This document shows positions 29,716-49,553 of a stretch of 64,000 nt of DNA, one piece after another; positions within the stretch are counted from its first letter, which is position 1; each line of letters begins with the position of its first letter. The notes below the pieces were generated by a model, which was not told where the DNA came from, searched no databases, and saw nothing but the letters and a program-made list of their open reading frames with translations. Origin of the DNA: a virus (taxonomy: Duplodnaviria; Caudoviricetes); IMG/VR virus record IMGVR_UViG_3300020388_000010. One strand, 5' to 3'. Both the position numbers and the translations under genes were made by a program.

Positions 29716-29947
29716 AAAATACATACACATAAATCAACACAAGATTCGTGCAAATAAAAAACACGGAACAAATGAAGCAGTAATTACTATTAAAGAAGGT
29801 CGTAAAAATACTTATTGTCATAGTGTTGAAATACTAGGCCCATCTAAATTATTTTATGGTGGTAATGATAAACCAATTCTACCTTGTGGTGCAAGAGTTG
29901 TTATTGAAACAGAAAGTGATTTAAAGATTGATAATAAAGACTATTGA
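29708..29947 (+). CDS. Conserved phage hypothetical protein
   Basis: IHINQHKIRAN...CGARVVIET, recurrent in marine phages. Confidence 0.65.
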   Translation: MTKKYIHINQHKIRANKKHGTNEAVITIKEGRKNTYCHSVEILGPSKLFYGGNDKPILPCGARVVIETESDLKIDNKDY

Positions 29948-30722
29948 TTGGAAAGTTGCAACTCTTTTCGTTCAAAAAAGACACTATAGTGCAGTTATGC
30001 CTAGACTAACTAAACATTGGTTAGGTTGTTATCAAAATGAAAAGTTAGTTGGGGTAATAACTTTAGGTTGGGGAACTAGACCTAAACATACCATACAAAA
30101 AATATTTCCAGAATTAGATACAAAAGATTATTATGAAATAGGAAAAATGTGTATGGATGAAGATATGCCTCGTAATTCTGAATCTCAAATGTTATCAAAA
30201 ACATTAAGTTATATACGAGAAAATTTATCCAATATAAAATATCTTTATACTTGGGCAGATGGTATTGTTGGTAAGCCTGGATATGTTTATCAATCTGCAA
30301 ATTTTTTATATGGTGGATTTGTTTGGACAGATGTTTATATTTTAGATGGAGAAAAGGTACACCCAAGAACATTACAAGGACAATTACCAAATGATGATGG
30401 AATGAAGTATGGACACAGACCCAATTCCGAACAACTAAAAGAAATGAAAATTACTAGAGTTTTTGGTAAACAGTTTCGTTACATATATCCTATGAATAAA
30501 ACATATAGAAAGTATCTTAAAAAATCTACTATGAATTGGAATTTAGACTATCCAAAAGATAAAGACTTGGAATGGAAAGTTAAAAAACCAGAGGACGAGA
30601 AATATACTTTGACAAAGGTAATGCCGTTCAAACAAGATAGTGGTAAAGTAAAACATAACTCTACTAATGTAAATAAAGTTGCAGATAAGTATGGAACAGC
30701 AAGTTTGGAGGAATTCATTTGA
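29928..30722 (+). CDS. Mom-like GNAT-fold DNA modification protein (GTG/TTG-type start)
   Basis: FVQKRHYS, LVGVITLG, EIGKMC, PRNSESQMLS, TWADG, GYVYQSANFLYGG. Confidence 0.78.
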   Translation: MIIKTIDWKVATLFVQKRHYSAVMPRLTKHWLGCYQNEKLVGVITLGWGTRPKHTIQKIFPELDTKDYYEIGKMCMDEDMPRNSESQMLSKTLSYIRENLSNIKYLYTWADGIVGKPGYVYQSANFLYGGFVWTDVYILDGEKVHPRTLQGQLPNDDGMKYGHRPNSEQLKEMKITRVFGKQFRYIYPMNKTYRKYLKKSTMNWNLDYPKDKDLEWKVKKPEDEKYTLTKVMPFKQDSGKVKHNSTNVNKVADKYGTASLEEFI

Positions 30723-36058: not shown

Positions 36059-36301
36059 ATGAAAAAAATAGATAATGTTAACCACCCACCACATTACAAT
36101 CAACAAAAAATTGAATGTATAGATGCAATAGAATGTGCAACTGGTGATGGTTTTGAAAGCTATCTTCAAGGTAATATATTAAAATACATTTGGAGATATA
36201 ATTATAAAAATGGTACTGAGGACTTAAAGAAAGCCCAATGGTACTTAAATAAACTTATTGAAGTGAAGGAACTAAATAATGAAATTGTCAAATCAGACTA
36301 A
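36059..36301 (+). CDS. DUF3310-family protein
   Basis: DNVNHPPHY, IECIDAI, GNILKYIWRY, EDLKKAQWYL. Confidence 0.88.
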   Translation: MKKIDNVNHPPHYNQQKIECIDAIECATGDGFESYLQGNILKYIWRYNYKNGTEDLKKAQWYLNKLIEVKELNNEIVKSD

Positions 36302-36953
36302 AGAGATATTAAAAAACTATTCTCAAATCAATCAAAACATTTTAATCAAACAAGGTAATCAGTTAAAAACTGTATCTGCAATGAAAAACATTGTTGCATC
36401 TGCAACTGTTCCAGATGAGTTCTCACAAGAGATTCCTATCTACAATCTAAATGAATATCTTGCAGCTATGTCTTTATTTAAAGAACCAATTTTATCTTTT
36501 AATGATAAGTATATGACTATCGCAGAAGAAGATAATAGTTCAAGTTGTAAGTATCATTATTCTGACCCATCTGTTATCGTTACAGTTGATAAAGAAATTA
36601 GTATGCCATCTGTTGATGCAGAGGTTGATATCACAGAAGTAAATCTAAAGAAAGTTATTACTGCAGCTGGCACATTAGGTGTATCTGATTTAGTATTAAC
36701 TGGTCAAAAAGATAGTACAATACAACTAAAAGTAAAAGATAAAAAGAACAAAGCATCAAATGATTTTGCAATCACAATCGGTAGTGGTGCATCTGCATTT
36801 TTTGAATTTTATTTCAAAGTAGAAAATCTAAAACTATTGCCTGGTGATTATAAAGTACAAGTTTCATCTAAAGGTATTTCTTATTTCCAACATAAGAATT
36901 TAGATGTATCATATTTTATTGCATTAGAACCAGAATCAACATACAATTCATAG
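36279..36953 (+). CDS. gp45: Sliding clamp gp45
   Basis: MKLSNQTKEILKNYSQINQNI, IYNLNEYL, FKVENLKLLPGDY, YFIALE. Confidence 0.95.
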   Translation: MKLSNQTKEILKNYSQINQNILIKQGNQLKTVSAMKNIVASATVPDEFSQEIPIYNLNEYLAAMSLFKEPILSFNDKYMTIAEEDNSSSCKYHYSDPSVIVTVDKEISMPSVDAEVDITEVNLKKVITAAGTLGVSDLVLTGQKDSTIQLKVKDKKNKASNDFAITIGSGASAFFEFYFKVENLKLLPGDYKVQVSSKGISYFQHKNLDVSYFIALEPESTYNS

Positions 36954-37924: not shown

Positions 37925-38689
37925 ATGGTTGATACAAATGAACAGGCAATTAATCTTGCAAAAGATATTAAGATGTCAATGGTTACTAAACCAGCATTAA
38001 ATATGTTGGAAGTATTTTTACCAGAATATGTTACAGATGAATTTAATGAGTATATTGATGGTGTAAGAGGAAGTGCAAAAAGTTTTTCACACGAACTTGT
38101 AGGACAAATTAAAGCAAATAAAAAGTCTGCACAATTAGATATGAACTTTGAAGATAAGCCAGTAAAAGGTTTGAAAGCACTTCTTGAAGGTTTTACACTT
38201 TCATATCTACAATTTTTAGGTTGTGCAGATGCAAAAAGTGATTGTGTATCTATGTGGTCAGTACATAGTTATGAAGGTGATTATAATCCACTACACGATC
38301 ACGGTGTTAATACACCTACTGGAATGTCTTGTATTTTATATTTAAAAGTACCACCACAGATAGAAAAATTATCTGGTAGTGCAAAAGAATACGAGACTGG
38401 TGGACTTAAACTAGATTTAAATAATGCATCTGGTACTACTGATGGTTTCACATTTTTTAGTTGGGGTATGAACTGCACTAGTGATATTAAACAATTAAAA
38501 CCAGTTCAAGAAGCATTTGTAAAACCAGAAGTTGGTAAACTATTAATGTTTCCTAATTGGTTAAAACACTCTGTATCACCATTTTATGGTGAAGGAGAAA
38601 GAAGAACTTTATCTGCAAACTTTGAGATAGAATTAAAAACTATGCCTTTACTTGCAGACCAAAAGATACTTGCACAGAGCCCACAATAA
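37925..38689 (+). CDS. Putative 2OG-Fe(II) oxygenase
   Basis: GDYNPLHDH, SCILYLKVP, PEVGKLLMFPNWLKHSVSPF, RRTLSAN. Confidence 0.82.
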   Translation: MVDTNEQAINLAKDIKMSMVTKPALNMLEVFLPEYVTDEFNEYIDGVRGSAKSFSHELVGQIKANKKSAQLDMNFEDKPVKGLKALLEGFTLSYLQFLGCADAKSDCVSMWSVHSYEGDYNPLHDHGVNTPTGMSCILYLKVPPQIEKLSGSAKEYETGGLKLDLNNASGTTDGFTFFSWGMNCTSDIKQLKPVQEAFVKPEVGKLLMFPNWLKHSVSPFYGEGERRTLSANFEIELKTMPLLADQKILAQSPQ

Positions 38690-39762: not shown

Positions 39763-42252
39763 ATGGATTTTTATACTAATGTAGTGCAATGGGGTAATTT
39801 TCTTTTAGTTCGTGGTGTTGATAAAAATCAAAGAGTAAGTTTTAGATTAAAATACAAACCAACTTTGTTTGTTCCAGTAATGAAACAAACGGATTGGAAA
39901 ACTCTTGATGGTAAATCAGTAACACCATATCAATTTGATTGTATAAAAGATGCAAAGGACTTTTTTCTCAAATACGAAAGTCAGCCTCATCTTGTTCACG
40001 GACTAAACAGATTTGCATACACATATATTTCAGATACATTTCCACAGAAGGTAAACTGGAACATTGATAAACTATTAATTATGACGATTGATATTGAGGT
40101 TCAATGTGAGAATGGTTTTCCTAATCCAGAATCTGCAATAGAACCTTTACTTTCTATTACAGTTAAAGACCAACAATCTAAAAAAATTATAGTGTGGGGT
40201 ATTCAACCTTACGAGAATACAAGAGAAAATGTTACTTATATTCGTTGTCCTAACGAACACGATTTGATTATGGAGTTTATGTCTTTCTGGACAAAGAACT
40301 ATCCAGATGTTATTACTGGTTGGAATACAGACTTCTTTGATATTCCTTATCTTGCAAATAGAATCAAACAAGTTTGTGGTGAAGATAAAATGCGAGAACT
40401 ATCACCTTGGAAAAATGTTAGTGCAAGAAAAATATATAGTATGGGTAGAAATCATTTGATGTATGACATTATGGGTGTATCTCAATATGATTATTTACAA
40501 CTCTATCAAAAGTTTACTTACACCAGACAAGAATCATACAAGTTAGATTATATTGCAAGTGTAGAGCTTGGTGAAAAGAAAGATGAAAATCCATACGAAA
40601 CATTTAGAGAGTGGTATGAAAAAGACTTTCAATCTTTCATTGATTATAATATTCAAGATGTGGAAATAGTTGACAAACTAGAAGACAAGATGGGTTTGAT
40701 TGACCTTGCACTTACTATGGCCTATGAGGGTAAAGTAAATTATTCAGATGTGTTTGGTCAAGTTAAATATTGGGATATTTTAATCTATAACTTCTTGAGA
40801 AAAAGAAAGATTGTTATACCACAGAAAAAGTCTTATAACAAAAACGAACAATATGAAGGTGCATATGTAAAAGAACCGATTACTGGTTTACATAAGTGGG
40901 TTGTATCATTTGATTTGAATTCACTATATCCACATTTAATTATGCAATATAATCTCTCACCAGAAACATTATTGAAAAGTAAACATCAAGACATTACAGT
41001 TGATGATATGTTAAAAGGTATTAAACTAGACATACCAGATAGAACTACTATGACACCAAATGGTGCATTGTTTAGAACAGATAAAAAAGGTTTCTTACCA
41101 ACTATGATGGAAGAGTTATACAATGAACGAGTGACTTACAAAAAGAAAATGTTATCTGCACAACAAGAATTTGAAAACACAAAAGACAACAAGTATAAAA
41201 AACTGATAAGTCGTTATAACAATATTCAGATGGCTCGTAAGATTTCTTTGAACTCTGCTTATGGTGCAATAGGTAATCAATATTTTCGTTATTACGATAA
41301 AGCGATTGCAGAGGGTATTACAAAGAGTGGTCAATTATCTATTCGTTGGATTGAAAACAAACTTAACAAATATCTAAACAATGTTTTAAAAACAGATGAT
41401 GATTATGTGATTGCATCTGATACCGACTCTGTTTATTTGACTATGGATAAACTTGTTAGTGAAACAATTAAAAGTGATAATGCACTTAGTAAAACAATAA
41501 ACTTTCTAGACAAGGTTGCATCAGAATCTATTGAACCATACATTACAAAATCGTATGACGAACTTAAACAATACACAAATGCATATGCAAATAAGATGTT
41601 TATGAAACGAGAAGTGATTGCAGACAAAGGTATTTGGGTTGCAAAGAAAAGATATATTCTAAATGTTTGGGATAGTGAAGGTGTATCATACAAAGAAGCA
41701 AAGTTGAAGATGATGGGTATTGAAGCTGTCAAGTCATCAACGCCTGCAATGTGTAGACAAAAGATTAAAGATGCACTTGAACTTATAATGACAAGTGATG
41801 AAAAAGAATTAAACAAGTTTGTAATTAATTTTAGAGAAGAGTTTCTTAAAGTAAAACCAGAATTGATTTCGTTTCCTCGTTCAGTAAATGGTTTATCAAA
41901 ATACTTTGATAGTGGAACAACATTTAAAAAGTCAACACCTATGCATATCAAAGGTGCATTGATATACAATCATAAGATAAAACAAAATAAACTTATAAAC
42001 AAATACCCTTTGATACAAGAGGGTGATAAGATTAAGTTTGTTTATTTAAAACAACCTAATCCATTTACTTCAAATGTAATCACATACATTACTAAACTTC
42101 CTAAAGAATTTGATATACACAGTTTTGTTGATTATGATATACAGTTTGAAAAAGTTTTCATTGACCCCTTGACATTAATTTTAAATAGTATAAAATGGAA
42201 TATAGATAGAACTTATGGAACACAAGGTAACTTAGAGGATTTTTTTGGGTAA
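39763..42252 (+). CDS. gp43: Family B DNA polymerase gp43
   Basis: DIEV exo I, SFDLNSLYPH, KISLNSAYGAIGN, SDTDS, KKRY. Confidence 0.98.
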   Translation: MDFYTNVVQWGNFLLVRGVDKNQRVSFRLKYKPTLFVPVMKQTDWKTLDGKSVTPYQFDCIKDAKDFFLKYESQPHLVHGLNRFAYTYISDTFPQKVNWNIDKLLIMTIDIEVQCENGFPNPESAIEPLLSITVKDQQSKKIIVWGIQPYENTRENVTYIRCPNEHDLIMEFMSFWTKNYPDVITGWNTDFFDIPYLANRIKQVCGEDKMRELSPWKNVSARKIYSMGRNHLMYDIMGVSQYDYLQLYQKFTYTRQESYKLDYIASVELGEKKDENPYETFREWYEKDFQSFIDYNIQDVEIVDKLEDKMGLIDLALTMAYEGKVNYSDVFGQVKYWDILIYNFLRKRKIVIPQKKSYNKNEQYEGAYVKEPITGLHKWVVSFDLNSLYPHLIMQYNLSPETLLKSKHQDITVDDMLKGIKLDIPDRTTMTPNGALFRTDKKGFLPTMMEELYNERVTYKKKMLSAQQEFENTKDNKYKKLISRYNNIQMARKISLNSAYGAIGNQYFRYYDKAIAEGITKSGQLSIRWIENKLNKYLNNVLKTDDDYVIASDTDSVYLTMDKLVSETIKSDNALSKTINFLDKVASESIEPYITKSYDELKQYTNAYANKMFMKREVIADKGIWVAKKRYILNVWDSEGVSYKEAKLKMMGIEAVKSSTPAMCRQKIKDALELIMTSDEKELNKFVINFREEFLKVKPELISFPRSVNGLSKYFDSGTTFKKSTPMHIKGALIYNHKIKQNKLINKYPLIQEGDKIKFVYLKQPNPFTSNVITYITKLPKEFDIHSFVDYDIQFEKVFIDPLTLILNSIKWNIDRTYGTQGNLEDFFG

Positions 42253-43444
42253 TTATTTTAGATATACATTAGACGATTTAGAAAAGTCTGCAAATAGAAA
42301 ACTATTTAATTTTATCAGCTTCTTTGCTGGTGGAGGTGGTTCTTCTTGTGGATATAAATTATCTGGTGGTGAATGTTTATTTGTAAATGAGTTTCAACAA
42401 GTTGCAGTAAATGATTATCTTGCAAACTTTCCAAACACACAACATATCTGTGGTGATATTAAAAATGTCACTGGTCAAAAGATTATGGAAATGACTGGAT
42501 TAAAGCCTGGTGAGTTAGATATATTAGATGGTTCACCACCTTGTCCACCATTTAGTATGTCTGGTACAAAACAAAAAGGTTGGAATCAAGAAAAAACTGC
42601 ATATGGTATGAAACAAAAAAACATTGAAGATTTAACTTGGGAACAAATTAGAATTGTTGGTGATTTAAAACCTAGAGTTGTTGTTTGTGAAAATGTTAAA
42701 GGTTTAACAATGGATTATGCAAGAGATCATTTAAATAGAATGGTTAAAGATTTTGAATCACACGGATATCATACAGTATGGAGAGTTTTAAAAGGACACG
42801 AACACGGAGTTCCACAAAAGAGAGAAAGAGTTTTTATAGTATCAGTTAGAGAAGATGTATTAGATGATATAGGTTTACCTTTTATGTGTTTAGATAGTTC
42901 TATATTTCCAGACCCAAAAGAAGAAAGATATAATATTAAAGATGCAATATATGATATACAAAAGACAAATAAAAATATATCTGAAGCATTTGAATTAAAA
43001 GAGTCTATGAAGAAAAGTGCTAAATATAAGTGGTTAAAAAGATTACAAAAGAATCCAGACAAAGTTATGTCTGTTGGTGATGATGTTGTCGGGCCTTGGT
43101 ATAGAAAAGTAATTGAACATAGAAAGAAGTGGGGTAAAAGTGAATGGAAAGAAAAACATAGTTTTTATCAATCAAGAAGAGTGCCTTGGAATCAACCAAG
43201 TCATACTCTATCAGAACAAGGATTAAGACAATCTCTTGCAGTTCATTTACACCCAGAAGAAGATAGAGTTTTTACTACTATTGAGGCTGCAAGAATAATG
43301 ACATTACCAGAAGATTATAAACTTGTTGGTAAATTAGATGACAACCTTGCGAGGATAGGGTTGATGGTTGCACCTTTACAATTACATTATCTATCAAAAA
43401 AGATTTATGAAAATATCCTAAAACCATATAAGGAGACAAAATGA
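42245..43444 (+). CDS. DNA (cytosine-5) methyltransferase (TTG start)
   Basis: Motif I FAGGGG, IV GSPPCPPFS, VI ENVKG, VIII PQKRERVF, IX/X EAARIMTLPEDY. Confidence 0.93.
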   Translation: MGNYFRYTLDDLEKSANRKLFNFISFFAGGGGSSCGYKLSGGECLFVNEFQQVAVNDYLANFPNTQHICGDIKNVTGQKIMEMTGLKPGELDILDGSPPCPPFSMSGTKQKGWNQEKTAYGMKQKNIEDLTWEQIRIVGDLKPRVVVCENVKGLTMDYARDHLNRMVKDFESHGYHTVWRVLKGHEHGVPQKRERVFIVSVREDVLDDIGLPFMCLDSSIFPDPKEERYNIKDAIYDIQKTNKNISEAFELKESMKKSAKYKWLKRLQKNPDKVMSVGDDVVGPWYRKVIEHRKKWGKSEWKEKHSFYQSRRVPWNQPSHTLSEQGLRQSLAVHLHPEEDRVFTTIEAARIMTLPEDYKLVGKLDDNLARIGLMVAPLQLHYLSKKIYENILKPYKETK

Positions 43445-44421
43445 AAAAAATAGTATTAGAAAAAGATTATGGTAAGAAAGAAACATTTGAAAAATGGAAT
43501 GGTAAATTCTTAGATGATTCATCTTATGATAAAGTTTACAAAGTTACACAAAAAGAAGATTTAGGAATAATGAAACCAGTAAGGTCATTAGATGGTTCTG
43601 ATGTTCCCCTTGCATATGTTGTAAACAATGTATATCCTAATGATGATATTAGAGATGTTCTCACAACAATAGAAGATACATCTACAATGAGAGCAAATTG
43701 TTCTGGGCCTATTGATAAAGAAGAAATGAAGAAAAAAGGTTTGATAGAGGGTGAACATTATAAATTAAGAACACCAAACTCTTATTATGTAAAAACCAAA
43801 TCTGGTAAATGGGGTATGATTGCATACAGTAATGAAATACATTCAGTAATGATAGGATATAAAAGAGGAAGATTTACTGGTGCAATAGATTCATCTGGTT
43901 GGTGTAAAGATAATAAAGAGAGATGGGAAAGACTTCAAGAGATATCTAAATGGAATGAGATTGCATTTAAGAAAGCAAACGAACAAGTATACAAATCTCA
44001 AAAGAGTTTTGCAGATAATAACATAAAACCAGAACATAGAGTTGGTGGTGGTATATTTACAACACTTTCTGCAAATAGATATTCTGCATATCAATCTACA
44101 AAGATGTCTGCACATATTGATAGTGGAGATACAGATGCTGGACTTACATCAATGTGCGTTTTCAGAGAAGGTGATTATGAGGGTGCATACTTAGTGTTTC
44201 CTAGATATGGAGTTGCTCTTGATGCACCAGATAACTCAGTAATCATTGCAGATAGTAATGAAGTACACGGAGTTACAGAGATAAGAGGTTCTGGACAAAG
44301 GTTTAGTTGTGTTGCATATTGTGATAGAAGACTCGCAACAGTAGGTGTTTATGGTAAACAAGAAAAACTTATTGGTAAGTATGCAGCTAAAGAAAGTGGA
44401 AACTTAGAAGAATTTATGTAA
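43441..44421 (+). CDS. TET/JBP-family 5-methylpyrimidine dioxygenase
   Basis: FTTLSANR, HxD in AHIDSGD, GAYLVFPRYG, HGVTEI, RFSCVAY; coupled to a C5-MTase. Confidence 0.82.
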   Translation: MKKIVLEKDYGKKETFEKWNGKFLDDSSYDKVYKVTQKEDLGIMKPVRSLDGSDVPLAYVVNNVYPNDDIRDVLTTIEDTSTMRANCSGPIDKEEMKKKGLIEGEHYKLRTPNSYYVKTKSGKWGMIAYSNEIHSVMIGYKRGRFTGAIDSSGWCKDNKERWERLQEISKWNEIAFKKANEQVYKSQKSFADNNIKPEHRVGGGIFTTLSANRYSAYQSTKMSAHIDSGDTDAGLTSMCVFREGDYEGAYLVFPRYGVALDAPDNSVIIADSNEVHGVTEIRGSGQRFSCVAYCDRRLATVGVYGKQEKLIGKYAAKESGNLEEFM

Positions 44422-44525
44422 CTACACATTTTGCAGACCCTTATATAGTGGTATTATTGAGAGAGTGTGTTATATTAAAATAGAATCACAATTAAGTGAT
44501 ATCCATTAAAACAAAAGGAGTTAAG

Positions 44526-45512
44526 ATGGAAATTAAAAAAAAGGCAATATCAGCCTCAGAAGAAATATTAGGATTTAATCCTAAATCAAAAGAAGAAGAT
44601 ATCTTTAGAGTTGTAATGACACCAAAAATGGCAAGGTATATTCTTAATAATCATAATAAACATAACAGAAAGTTTGTTCCAGCTCAATTAAAAGCAATAA
44701 ACCTTAGTGTAGACAGACATAACTGGTTACACACTGGTGATACTTGTGCATTTGATACAACTGGCAATTTAACTGAGTTTCAACATAGACTAGAAAATAT
44801 TGCAGCTGAAAGAAAAAACAGAGTTGTTTGGATTGCAACTGGTGTTAGAAAAGATAGTTTTGAAAAGGCTGCACCAGCAAAAAACCGAACTAAGTTTGAT
44901 GTTGTATGGCGTTATGAAAAAAGTGCAACAAAAGATGAGGTCACTACCTTAGAACAAGTTTTAAGAATGAGAAAAGGGAAGGACAAACAATCTATTGATA
45001 CCGAAACTTTAACAATGGTAAATGCACTAAGTTTATTTAGAGTATGGAAAGAATATATTCGTATAGGTATGAACATAACCAATAAATTTTTTGAAGATAA
45101 AAAAGTTAGAAGATTTTTACCTTGGCAAAGAATTTTAAATGCTTGGGCAACAATTTTAGTCTTTCAAGGTAAAGATGAAATACCAAAAAACTTTTTATCA
45201 CTACTTAAAACTCATCTCACAACAACAAAAAAAGTTCAACTCTTTACAGAAATGAATGAGTATTTTCTTGGAGATGAGGGTAAAGGTGTCGGTTGGATTA
45301 CTGGAACAAAAAAATCTGAACAGATGTTTTATATGTTATGTAAAGCCACAGATAGATTTTTAATCGCACCAGAAGGTGATTGTGAGTTCGGTTTAAGTCT
45401 TGCAGAATCTAATCACACAAATATGCTTCAACAGAGTTCAACTTATAGAAGTTTTTTAATGAATCCTCAAGGATTAAAATTAAAAACTAAAAACATAGTA
45501 ACTTTATTTTAG
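44526..45512 (+). CDS. ParB/Srx-like (DGQHR-like) domain protein
   Basis: AAGGAG RBS before ATG 44526; TPKMARYIL..NR..W..TGD..FD..GNLTEFQHRL. Confidence 0.55.
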   Translation: MEIKKKAISASEEILGFNPKSKEEDIFRVVMTPKMARYILNNHNKHNRKFVPAQLKAINLSVDRHNWLHTGDTCAFDTTGNLTEFQHRLENIAAERKNRVVWIATGVRKDSFEKAAPAKNRTKFDVVWRYEKSATKDEVTTLEQVLRMRKGKDKQSIDTETLTMVNALSLFRVWKEYIRIGMNITNKFFEDKKVRRFLPWQRILNAWATILVFQGKDEIPKNFLSLLKTHLTTTKKVQLFTEMNEYFLGDEGKGVGWITGTKKSEQMFYMLCKATDRFLIAPEGDCEFGLSLAESNHTNMLQQSSTYRSFLMNPQGLKLKTKNIVTLF

Positions 45513-45515
45513 ATT

Positions 45516-46040
45516 ATGATTATAATGATTAGTGGTATACCTTGCTCTGGCAAAACCACATTACTTAAATCTATAATAAAAGACTTGGGTTCATATGAAA
45601 ATTGTGAACCCACTTCTTTATTTAAATGTCAAAAATTTAAAGATGTTCTTGTAATAGGTCAATATCCAGAAAATGAAACATTTGGTGGTACTGACAGATT
45701 ATCATATGGAACAATTAGTAAGTTTCAAGATTTTATAAACACACAATCAAAACAATATAAACACATTATCTTTGAGGGTGATAGGTTCACAAATAATATT
45801 GAGTGGGTACTTGACAAACACCAAAGTATAGTGTATATTCTAATAGTAAGCTATGAAGAAGAAAATAAAAGACACACTTTGAGAAAAGACAATCAAAGTG
45901 AAACTTGGTTAAAAGGAAGAAGAACCCAAATAGACAATATACAAAAGAATTTAAGTCTTATGGGAAGATTACAGATTAGAGATACTTCAGATGGTATCAA
46001 TACTGTAAAGGGTGAAATTATGGAGATACTGAATGCCTGA
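45516..46040 (+). CDS. P-loop nucleotide kinase-like protein
   Basis: [11 protein letters not shown]...[15 protein letters not shown]. Confidence 0.7.
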
Positions 46041-47073
46041 TTTTTTAAAAGAAGTTATCAAAACAACTGGTAACGAATATGCATCATTAGTTTCAGACGG
46101 AGTTGGAGCTGGTGATGTAGATGAATTTATTGATACTGGGTCATATGCTTTAAATGCATTATTATCTGGTTCAATAAATGGTGGACTTCCAGCAAATAAG
46201 ATTACTGCAATCGCTGGTGAAAGTGCAACTGGTAAAACATTTTTTCTGATGGGTATGTGTAAAAACTTTCTGGACAAAAATCCAGAGAGTGGTGTCATAT
46301 ACTTTGAAAGTGAAAGTGCGATTACTAAACAAATGATTATTGATAGAGGTATTGACCCATCAAGAATGGTTATACTTCCAGTAACAACAGTACAAGAATT
46401 TAGAACTCAATCATTGAAAGTTCTAGATAGCTATATTAATCAAGAAGAATCTATTCGTAGACCATTATTTCTTGCATTAGATTCACTTGGTATGTTATCA
46501 ACAACAAAAGAAGTTGAAGATACTGCTGAGGGAAAAGAAACAAGAGATATGACTCGTGCTCAAGTTCTTAAAGCTGCATTTAGAGTGTTGACTTTAAAAC
46601 TTGGTAAAGCAAAAGTACCTATGGTTGTAACGAATCACACATATGATGTTGTTGGTTCTATGTTTCCAACAAAAGAAATGGGTGGTGGTTCTGGATTAAA
46701 ATATGCAGCTTCTTCTATTGTATATCTTTCTAAAAGAAAAGAAAAAGAAGGAACAGAAGTTGTAGGTAATATTATACATTGTAAAAACTTTAAATCAAGA
46801 CTTACCATTGAAAACAAAATGGTAGATGTTAGACTAACATATAATAAAGGTCTTGATAGATATTATGGATTACTTGAACTTGCAGAAAAATATAAAGTAT
46901 TCAAAAAAGTTTCAACAAGGTATGAATTACCAGACGGTTCAAAACAATATGGTAAAACTATATTGAATGACCCAAAGAAATATTTCACTAAAGATGTTAT
47001 GGCCATCTTAGATGAATGTGCAAAAAAGGAATTTAGATATGGTGGAACAGAAAGCGTTGAAGAAAGCGAATGA
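46033..47073 (+). CDS. uvsX: Recombinase UvsX (RecA-like)
   Basis: [39 protein letters not shown]. Confidence 0.96.
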
Positions 47074-48785: not shown

Positions 48786-48987
48786 AAAGTACAAGGTTAA
48801 ATATTTTGTTGATGTGGAATGGAGAGATAAAGCAGCTTGCTATGTTGTTATTGAATTACCGACAAACGATGTTGTCCAAATATTTAAATTCAAGGAAGAC
48901 GCTGAAGAAATGGTTTTAACTCTAATGACTATAAGACCATTTGGTAAAGAACCTTTACCAAAATTCTTAAAGGAAAATGTATGGTAG
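48757..48987 (+). CDS. Hypothetical protein
   Basis: AGGAG RBS; coupled ORF. Confidence 0.55.
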   Translation: MKSFPTSKYKKYKVKYFVDVEWRDKAACYVVIELPTNDVVQIFKFKEDAEEMVLTLMTIRPFGKEPLPKFLKENVW

Positions 48988-49553
48988 ATGATCCAGTAAA
49001 AGACCACCCACCAATATGGGGTAAAGAAGGTAGACAAATATTATTCAAAGAGAGATATCCAGTTGTTCTCAAAACATATGATAAATGGAAAACTCTTAAC
49101 CCTATATTAGAAAAGTTTATCAGACAACAAGGTGATAGAATAAATTACAAGTCAAATGTAAAAGCACAAATGACTGAATGGAATATGCAATTAGAAGCTG
49201 GTGGTGAACATTTTCAAGAACTAGTAAACTGGGTAAGAGAAATTTCAATAGAAGTATCACCAGTACAATTCATTCCAGATTGTTACGATTGTTGGGGTGC
49301 AGTATATAAAAAGGGAGAATATACTATATCCCACGACCATTGGCCTGCGATATGGTCTTGGACATACTATGTTAATGTAACTAGTCAATGTTCACCATTA
49401 GTATTCACAAACACAGATTATAAAGTACAACCGTCAAACGGATTGCTGGTGATGTTTCCAGGCTGGGTAAAACATAAAGTACCACCACAAGAAATTGACT
49501 TTGAAAGAGTTATGGTTGCTGGTAATTTAAATGCAAGAACTGGAATGTTTTAA
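48981..49553 (+). CDS. Putative 2OG-Fe(II) oxygenase
   Basis: SHDHWP, SWTYYV, GLLVMFPGWVKHKV, RVMVAGN. Confidence 0.82.
   Translation: MVDDPVKDHPPIWGKEGRQILFKERYPVVLKTYDKWKTLNPILEKFIRQQGDRINYKSNVKAQMTEWNMQLEAGGEHFQELVNWVREISIEVSPVQFIPDCYDCWGAVYKKGEYTISHDHWPAIWSWTYYVNVTSQCSPLVFTNTDYKVQPSNGLLVMFPGWVKHKVPPQEIDFERVMVAGNLNARTGMF

Follow-up and report, generated by a model that had tools for sequence, protein, structure and literature searches.

A putative cytosine hypermodification locus with an exchangeable ParB-like/kinase cassette between the polymerase and uvsX genes of a marine T4-like phage

What becomes of 5-hydroxymethylcytosine (5hmC) in phage DNA when the genes predicted to make it are followed by a ParB-like gene and that of a P-loop kinase? 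The question is raised by a 64,000-nucleotide stretch of a virus of the Caudoviricetes (Duplodnaviria), IMG/VR record IMGVR_UViG_3300020388_000010 (this whole stretch is called the window hereafter), in which four tightly packed plus-strand genes at 42245-46040, between those of the DNA polymerase and UvsX, encode, in this order, a C5-cytosine DNA methyltransferase (C5-MTase), a TET/JBP-type 5-methylpyrimidine dioxygenase (5mYOX, called the TET below), a ParB/sulfiredoxin (Srx)-fold protein designated ORF4 and a P-loop kinase. The phage is marine, T4-like and related to phage Melnitz of OM43. Hypermodifications of phage DNA defeat restriction and CRISPR systems and are a source of epigenome-sequencing tools; the glycosyltransferase branch of the C5-MTase/TET pathway has been worked out, while our literature search found no paper resolving the kinase branch or testing such a kinase on 5hmC. 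The reading favoured here, with moderate confidence, is that of a post-replicative cytosine hypermodification locus of the C5-MTase/5mYOX clade II/B kind, in which the kinase would take a further step and ORF4 would act as a helper.

An initial annotation, made from the letters of the window, had placed these four genes between gp43 and uvsX, and the open reading frames (ORFs), together with the Pfam and PHROG matches, bear this out (Table 1). The polymerase and C5-MTase genes overlap by 8 nt (the TTG start codon of the latter lying 8 nt inside the polymerase stop end), as do the kinase gene and uvsX, the C5-MTase and TET genes overlap in an ATGA, and ORF4 is spaced 3 nt from the kinase gene, which leaves a 104-nt gap from the TET gene to ORF4 as the sole break in the packing.

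Table 1. Positions, in window coordinates, of the module genes, their flanks and the further elements discussed in the text
Feature	Position	Strand	Matches and remarks
Mom-family protein, tail ...TASLEEFI	29928-30722	+	PF25680 3.2e-53
Clamp gene gp45	36279-36953		
Family-B DNA polymerase (gp43-like)	39763-42252	+	Pfam DNA_pol_B 1.6e-34; phrog_262 E 0
C5-cytosine DNA methyltransferase	42245-43444	+	PF00145 DNA_methylase 7.9e-55; TIGR00675 6e-48
TET/JBP-type 5-methylpyrimidine dioxygenase (5mYOX)	43441-44421	+	PF12851 44.5 bits, cut-off 34.9
TET C-terminal tail GNLEEFM	44398-44418	+	resembles polymerase tail GNLEDFFG
Swappable cassette, TET stop to uvsX ATG	44440-46032	.	
ORF4, ParB/Srx-fold N-domain (DGQHR-type) and helical C-domain	44526-45512	+	AF2 model, structure matches
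EFQHR motif (family consensus GQHR), ParB/Srx "GxxR" nucleotide-/phosphate-binding box	44775-44789	+	
P-loop kinase (Ploopntkinase3), 174 aa, Walker A GIPCSGKT	45516-46040	+	candidate 5hmC DNA kinase
UvsX recombinase, downstream flank	46033-47073	+	phrog_97 2.3e-94; RecA 3.3e-15

As for the first two genes, the C5-MTase scores 187 bits against PF00145 (cut-off 22) and carries motifs I (FAGGGG, residue 27), IV (PPC, 98-100), VI (ENV, 149) and VIII (QKRER, 191); the profile search confirmed the TET/JBP assignment made at the outset, and the HxD...H...R set of the TET, i.e., H225-x-D227, H276 and R287 (the Fe(II) ligands and the 2-oxoglutarate (2OG)-binding arginine), is unchanged in 29 orthologs. 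The relatives compared were 60 IMG/VR loci encoding the TET, 53 of which extend far enough upstream for the methyltransferase to be assessed, and its gene lies directly 5' of the TET gene in 52 of the 53. Two contigs (L047:1-1328 and L048:2-1386) have the kinase gene directly upstream of that of the TET, and both end before the methyltransferase position. Burke et al. (2021; PNAS 118:e2026742118; PMC8256090), who screened marine viromes for C5-MTase/TET pairs, obtained Gp5mC and then Gp5hmC (5mC being 5-methylcytosine) in E. coli from clade I/II methyltransferases and clade A/B TETs. The gene order by which they define clade II/B (PMC8256090) agrees with that read in the window and across the 60 related loci: polymerase, C5-MTase and TET, then a P-loop kinase or a glycosyltransferase, with an HxD-H-R TET and marine metaviromes as the source in both cases. 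With the 52/53 linkage and this polymerase-upstream layout, which is that of Gp5hmC makers, the post-replicative 5mC-to-5hmC type that the initial annotation had claimed for the pair is supported, as far as gene content and order can indicate. By homology and by the published activities of the clade, the C5-MTase would methylate cytosine in new phage DNA, probably in GpC, and the TET would then oxidise 5mC to 5hmC.

How a post-replicative TET could keep pace with the fork is suggested by its clamp-type tail. Each of the 23 TET orthologs read, the most divergent at 51% identity, has a C-terminus of the form [GS][NS]L-x-x-F followed by a hydrophobic residue, and the same tail type ends the polymerase and the Mom-like protein of the window. 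The C-terminal tail of T4 gp43 binds the gp45 clamp. By analogy, the TET tail is presumably a sliding-clamp-binding peptide, and since it copies that of the polymerase, the TET is probably tethered to the gp45 clamp behind the fork; both the TET and the Mom-like protein, as DNA-modifying enzymes, may be held by clamps remaining on the new DNA. The Mom family, that of the phage Mu adenine modifier, also raises the possibility that this phage modifies adenine besides cytosine.

The third step would fall to the kinase. That a kinase might act here is no novelty: P-loop kinases and ParB genes had been listed in C5-MTase/TET contigs, with the proposal that the kinase phosphorylates TET-made 5hmC for further modification by hypothetical proteins (PMC8256090), because of which the "undescribed route" of the initial annotation is not undescribed as an idea. 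The core of the locus, therefore, belongs to a catalogued kind, and the kinase-on-5hmC idea is already published; what sets the window apart from that kind is the pairing of its kinase with a DGQHR-type ParB/Srx protein that lacks a Pfam match. The kinase family profile aligns with M6 gp54, an experimentally proven DNA kinase of 5-hydroxymethyldeoxyuridine (5-hmdU) (PMC8989533), with an hhalign probability of 92.8% (E 4e-7, 124 columns), the alignment spanning the Walker A motif and the G-x-Y-P...G-x-D-R block. Among the relatives, the kinase is found in some cassette types only, and always in the TET-uvsX slot or adjoining the TET gene; among cultured TET-bearing genomes, homologs occur in Cr30, ~7 kb from a TET-like gene, and in cluster-B-type mycobacteriophages, of which Phelemich has both the kinase and a TET-like gene among its genes 1-5. 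From this distribution and the homology, we infer that the kinase belongs to the modification pathway and not to housekeeping, and that it would phosphorylate the 5-hydroxymethyl group in DNA, giving 5-phosphomethylcytosine. On the side of database labels, RefSeq names M6 gp54 (L076:11686-12249) and the relatives in Cr30 (NC_025422) and Phelemich (gene 5; NC_022063) "terminase small subunit", and the label is also that of PHROG 800, hit by the kinase of the window at 1.3e-12; on relatives of a 5-hmdU kinase, this looks like a propagated misannotation.

What would come after the phosphate is best judged against the thymidine pathway of M6, ViI, PaMx11 and PhiW-14, i.e., a 5-hmdU DNA kinase (5-HMUDK) plus an amino-acid:DNA transferase (AADT) (Lee et al. 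2018, 2021; PMC5889632, PMC8989533). It shares with the window a homologous kinase and the same logic (a hydroxymethylated pyrimidine in DNA is esterified with phosphate, which is then substituted); that pathway, however, starts from 5hmdU formed ahead of replication and never lacks the transferase (PF18724), whereas in the window the precursor would be post-replicative 5hmC and the kinase falls in the sister family PF18751. The proven pathway needs the transferase after the kinase (PMC8989533). A scan for ADDT (PF18724) and aGPT-Pplase3 (PF18746), confined to the four proteins of the module and the complete genome of Melnitz (aGPT-Pplase1 and the remainder of the 64-kb window lying outside it), found neither, with M6 gp51 scoring 2.3e-48 as the positive control. 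The usual transferase not having been found there, the phosphate ester, and thus a phosphorylated cytosine, would be the end product, or else the phosphate would be a leaving group displaced by an unrecognised, new enzyme. The locus thus presents itself as a cytosine-type TET/ParB/kinase cassette without a recognised transferase in the module. Nor was any homolog of the glycosyltransferases in the relatives' cassettes found elsewhere in the window by tblastn and by a Pfam scan of a subset of its ORFs, which agrees with the remark of the initial annotation that none was visible.

Evidence on the precursor comes from the relatives, in which the stretch between TET and uvsX is hypervariable though the flanks are 94-100% identical. 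Phages with TETs 94-99% identical hold at least seven different cassettes in this slot: ORF4 plus the kinase (the window); an unrelated 393-aa protein plus the same kinase, 97% identical (L008); proteins of 365 and 336 aa, a cytidylyltransferase and a 426-aa protein (L003); a helicase-like protein, an epimerase and a TAGT (PF20691) glycosyltransferase (L004); a helicase-like protein, TAGT and a 294-aa protein (L007); proteins of 323 and 214 aa and a TAGT-like one (L005); and proteins of 400 and 294 aa (L009). A more distant relative (L036, TET ~75%) has a T4-type alpha-glucosyltransferase (PF11440, 3.6e-66) followed by a TAGT-like gene, another (L053; TET 67%, flanks 87-93%) has no cassette between TET and uvsX, and in L065 the polymerase-uvsX slot is taken by another module, with the C5-MTase and TET absent; the polymerase-uvsX junction is, in short, a variable spot. 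Glycosyltransferase, epimerase and CTP-transferase cassettes such as these also stand in the figures of Burke et al., and where glycosyltransferase-type genes replace ORF4 and the kinase beside a near-identical TET, 5hmC is indicated as the shared precursor. In L041 (2751-6596), one cassette holds both a TAGT glycosyltransferase and a distant homolog of the kinase (29% identical), along with a helicase-like protein and an epimerase; the kinase and sugar transfer are, then, not always alternatives.

Among the new observations are the cassette exchange among near-identical phages and its exact boundaries. Between the window and the relatives L003-L009, similarity stops ~18 nt past the TET stop and restarts at the uvsX ATG; metagenome contigs break off at these same points, with a loose end at 44439 in run X16 that coincides with the start of an L003-type cassette and another before 46032. 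The order TET-ORF4-kinase-uvsX itself is spanned by an independent metagenome DNA contig, X6 (2607 nt, 31 differences). Contigs X15 and X16 of RNA libraries cover polymerase, C5-MTase, TET, kinase and uvsX and leave ORF4 uncovered, which is not evidence; such libraries can hold DNA. The alternative cassettes start with a TTGACA-N17-TAnnAT element, and those without a kinase finish with TTGACA-N17-TACAAT and AAGGAG ahead of uvsX; judged by sequence pattern, these elements fit promoter-flanked modular exchange, a process known from T4-type plastic regions. A scan for promoters and terminators, and for the T4 late-promoter motif, gave matches at chance level. On this picture, ORF4 and the kinase would form one promoter-preceded cassette, exchanged in relatives for other ParB-like/kinase or glycosyltransferase cassettes, and the exchange would vary the final base as a guard against host nucleases that depend on modification; among near-identical, abundant ocean phages, it amounts to a natural experiment in modified-base diversification.

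What, then, is ORF4? Its reading frame runs over 44496-45512, and the true start is most likely the ATG at 44526, which gives 328 aa and has an AAGGAG 5 nt upstream. No Pfam, NCBIfam or PADLOC match was found for it, PADLOC returning generic matches at most for ORF4, the TET and the kinase, and a profile of 20 close homologs retrieved 10,930 cluster representatives at E <= 0.001, none of them named and all "hypothetical". The N-domain consensus of the family reads ITP..A..IL...N..NR...W..G..I.F...GNL..GQHRL.AI; E94, Q96, H97 and R98 of ORF4 are unchanged in 20 orthologs, and the Q, H and R of the motif are at least 90% conserved among 70 distant family members. An AlphaFold model from an alignment of these 70 sequences reached a predicted local distance difference test score (pLDDT) of 93.4 and a predicted template modelling score (pTM) of 0.85, an earlier one from the 20 close homologs having been poor (pLDDT 66). 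Residues 32-129 of the model match, in the PDB, sulfiredoxin (Z 5.4, root-mean-square deviation 3.9, 83 aligned), SerK (4.8), Atu1540 (4.7), PadC (4.7), the pNOB8 ParB N-domain (4.5) and BrxU (4.5), then Osa, KorB and SbnI, and the full length matches phage models in BFVD named "ParB-like nuclease domain protein" (E 3.3e-7) and "ParB/Sulfiredoxin"; in Foldseek against the PDB, ParB-family chains lead, at E 0.05 or worse. The Z values are modest, yet the matches are consistent for so small a domain, and the model can be assigned to the ParB/Srx fold. It is by structure that this fold was recognised, since searches of PDB chains with the single sequence and two profiles gave chance-level matches only, to ribosomal proteins. 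PF02195 matches neither ORF4 nor any of the 70 family members, whose motif is QHR and not ERR, and the weak Pfam matches in the family are to GmrSD_N and DndB, in 3 members each and at best 6e-4 and 0.058, respectively; the helical C-domain (~130-325) has no clear match among solved structures. ORF4 is, then, ParB/DGQHR-like at the superfamily level, as the initial annotation had it (the motif reading EFQHR in the window), and not a chromosome-segregation-type ParB of PF02195.

Its link to the pathway is seen in gene neighbourhoods. The order TET, ORF4-like gene, kinase is retained in L070-72 at an ORF4 identity of only 31%, and ORF4-like genes also lie just before the polymerase gene (L043/44) or just after that of the methyltransferase (L073). 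The gene that comes first after the TET is of a family with a ParB/Srx-type GxxR motif in 26 of 47 loci, before kinase and glycosyltransferase genes alike; these first-gene families are seven in number, seemingly unrelated, and have the motif ~80-120 residues from the N-terminus. A 319-aa family aligns with that of ORF4 over the ParB/Srx core (hhalign 69%, E 4.3e-5), and the Atlas structural neighbours of the 393-aa protein of L008 are ParB_N families. Links among the first-gene families came only from profile-profile comparison and are of moderate strength: searches of the other cassette proteins with hidden Markov model (HMM) profiles of ORF4 gave no match, profile-sequence hhalign was insignificant, and PDB sequence searches with the L032 and L010 proteins and one further profile returned nothing useful. 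As ParB-like first genes precede both kinase and glycosyltransferase cassettes, a general helper fits better than kinase-specific chemistry. A ParB protein as an activator of a 5mYOX has been reported (O'Toole et al. 2026; PMC13229309), and ORF4 is most likely a DNA- or nucleotide-binding helper of the kind that ParB proteins provide for phage thymine dioxygenases, this being the weakest step of the proposed mechanism. The predicted ORF4-kinase complex scored 0.00, which was counted neither for nor against association.

Two other settings of such proteins deserve mention. In the marine T4-like phages L065 (5787-9464) and L067 (6078-8936), the ORF4-like gene comes after two others, one encoding a DruA-like protein (PF14236, up to 2.4e-12) and the next a small one (YunG-like in L065, where a MazG-like gene follows ORF4 and the set lies between polymerase and uvsX); no methyltransferase, TET or kinase is present in these modules, which makes them a different ParB-like module. 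In L022 (8579-9937) and L032 (2884-4260), a 452-458-aa protein with DUF262-like motifs (..QR.., DGGHR) stands between TET and kinase, and its C-terminal HNH match in L022 (PF01844, 3.2e-4) is just below the cut-off: a GmrSD-like layout, i.e., of a modification-dependent nuclease type, inside a phage modification cassette.

The closest cultured phage, Melnitz (MZ577095; Buchholz et al. 2022; PMC9004378), whose host is OM43 (Methylophilales), has the order polymerase, methyltransferase, TET, a 427-aa protein, kinase, two small ORFs and RecA/UvsX, with 74.8% nucleotide identity to the window over the matched parts and 78% (TET) and 58% (kinase) at the protein level; the paper mentions the methylase alone, the other module genes being annotated as hypothetical. 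It differs in that the protein before the kinase is unrelated to ORF4 and has a GIY-YIG-like motif at its start. This protein (L001:5017-6300 in Melnitz; L030:3309-4628, where the motif reads ..YLYEI....GKKYIG..) has no ParB-type motif in its first 160 residues, and may be a homing-endonuclease-like insertion or fusion. Together, the locus and its cultured relative make a compact four-gene test case.

Several points weigh against the hypermodification reading. The kinase reaches 26 bits against PF18751 Ploopntkinase3 (cut-off 27), a family that many orthologs carry, and gp54 belongs to PF18748 (HMUDK_HMUD1), of which PF18751 is a sister and not the same family. The assignment of the C5-MTase and TET to clade II/B follows gene order and not trees. 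As to ORF4, it is missing beside a TET of 99% and beside a kinase of 97% identity, so that it is obligatory for neither; Burke et al. obtained 5hmC from methyltransferase and TET alone (PMC8256090), hence a ParB protein is not needed for the 5hmC step; members of its family live away from TET and kinase, in a tRNA island of cyanophage S-RIM4 and in the DruA-like modules of L065 and L067-69; and the remaining first-gene families are counted as ParB-like from motifs, weak hhalign links (32-49%) and one SbnI match at E 0.21. The modified base and the activities of the module are, moreover, predictions from genes alone. The earlier idea that the kinase and/or the ParB-like protein process 5hmC holds better for its first half, the kinase being homologous to a DNA-base kinase, than for its second, given where else the ORF4 family occurs. 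That ORF4 and the Ploopntkinase3 kinase jointly make an undescribed cytosine modification (stable 5-phosphomethylcytosine, or a base from which the phosphate is displaced without a known amino-acid:DNA transferase), and that ParB-superfamily proteins are general, exchangeable partners of clamp-tethered 5mC dioxygenases and not of thymine dioxygenases alone, is a possibility that we put forward tentatively and with more doubt than conviction.

The alternative that survives best, unlikely as we consider it, is that the C5-MTase and TET alone would be the modification system, with 5hmC (or 5mC/5hmC) as its end product. The other two genes would have no part in it and be carried along in a hyperplastic region, one for a nucleotide kinase and the other, ORF4, for a ParB/DGQHR-type accessory that stands by itself, e.g., an anti-defence or DNA-binding protein. 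The scatter of the ORF4 family over other variable islands without a TET suits it, as do a slot that accepts many unrelated genes (or, in L053, none) and a sub-threshold kinase score accompanied by weak matches to generic kinases; against it speak the alignment of the kinase family to a proven DNA-base kinase, the recurrence of kinase homologs in three TET-bearing phage lineages that are unrelated to each other, the glycosyltransferases named for hydroxymethylated DNA bases (TAGT, AGT) in the slot of the relatives, and the persistence of the ORF4-like/kinase pairing down to 31% identity.

Quite unlikely, in our estimate, is thymine as the main TET substrate, with ParB-dependent formation of 5-hydroxymethyluracil (5hmU), its conversion to 5-phosphomethyl-U by the kinase and the C5-MTase acting separately. 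The clade C1 thymine dioxygenases (e.g., 5mYOX176/ParB176; PMC13229309) have a ParB protein and a P-loop kinase as their hallmark neighbours, and in their clusters, as here, the 5mYOX adjoins a ParB-superfamily protein and a P-loop kinase and the ParB-like gene is swappable and without an obvious DNA-binding domain; 5hmU is the substrate of those relatives of the kinase whose activity is proven (PMC8989533), and a phage enzyme, TET89, takes T as well as 5mC (PMC8256090). The clade C1 clusters, however, have no adjacent C5-MTase, modify thymine and in most cases include AADT or GATase (PMC13229309), whereas in the window the C5-MTase gene is translationally coupled to that of the TET and directly upstream of it in nearly all assessable loci, the polymerase gene lies upstream, as it does in the 5mC-active clade II/B (PMC8256090), and AADT and GATase, the normal companions of the thymine pathway, were not found in the module proteins or the Melnitz genome. 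The ParB proteins differ as well: those of clade C1 resemble chromosome-segregation ParBs (the closest being M. xanthus and C. crescentus ParB) and keep the residues of the CTP site (PMC13229309), while ORF4, with its DndB/GmrSD-like QHR motif, has no PF02195 match, and relatives of the TET occur without it.

Very unlikely, and less likely than the helper role, is ORF4 as a catalytic second-step transferase that, in place of the missing amino-acid:DNA transferase, would displace the kinase-made phosphate, or add a second phosphate, to build a new cytosine adduct. In its favour, the ParB/Srx fold includes phosphotransferases that are among the best of the structural matches (sulfiredoxin, and SerK and SbnI as serine kinases), the residues kept invariant (N-x-x-N-R ... 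Q-H-R ... R) point to a pocket for phosphate, the gene is 3 nt from that of the kinase with no ADDT found in the module or Melnitz, and the pre-kinase protein varies while the kinase is constant, as for a specificity-determining enzyme. Against it, similar ParB-like first genes precede glycosyltransferase cassettes without a kinase (L005, L010, L003, L009), and no catalytic precedent is known for a DGQHR-type domain that acts on DNA bases.

Beyond the module, two more small 2OG-Fe(II) oxygenases (PF13759) are encoded on the plus strand on either side of the replication genes, one at 37925-38689, between clamp loader and polymerase, and the other at 48981-49553, after the helicase.

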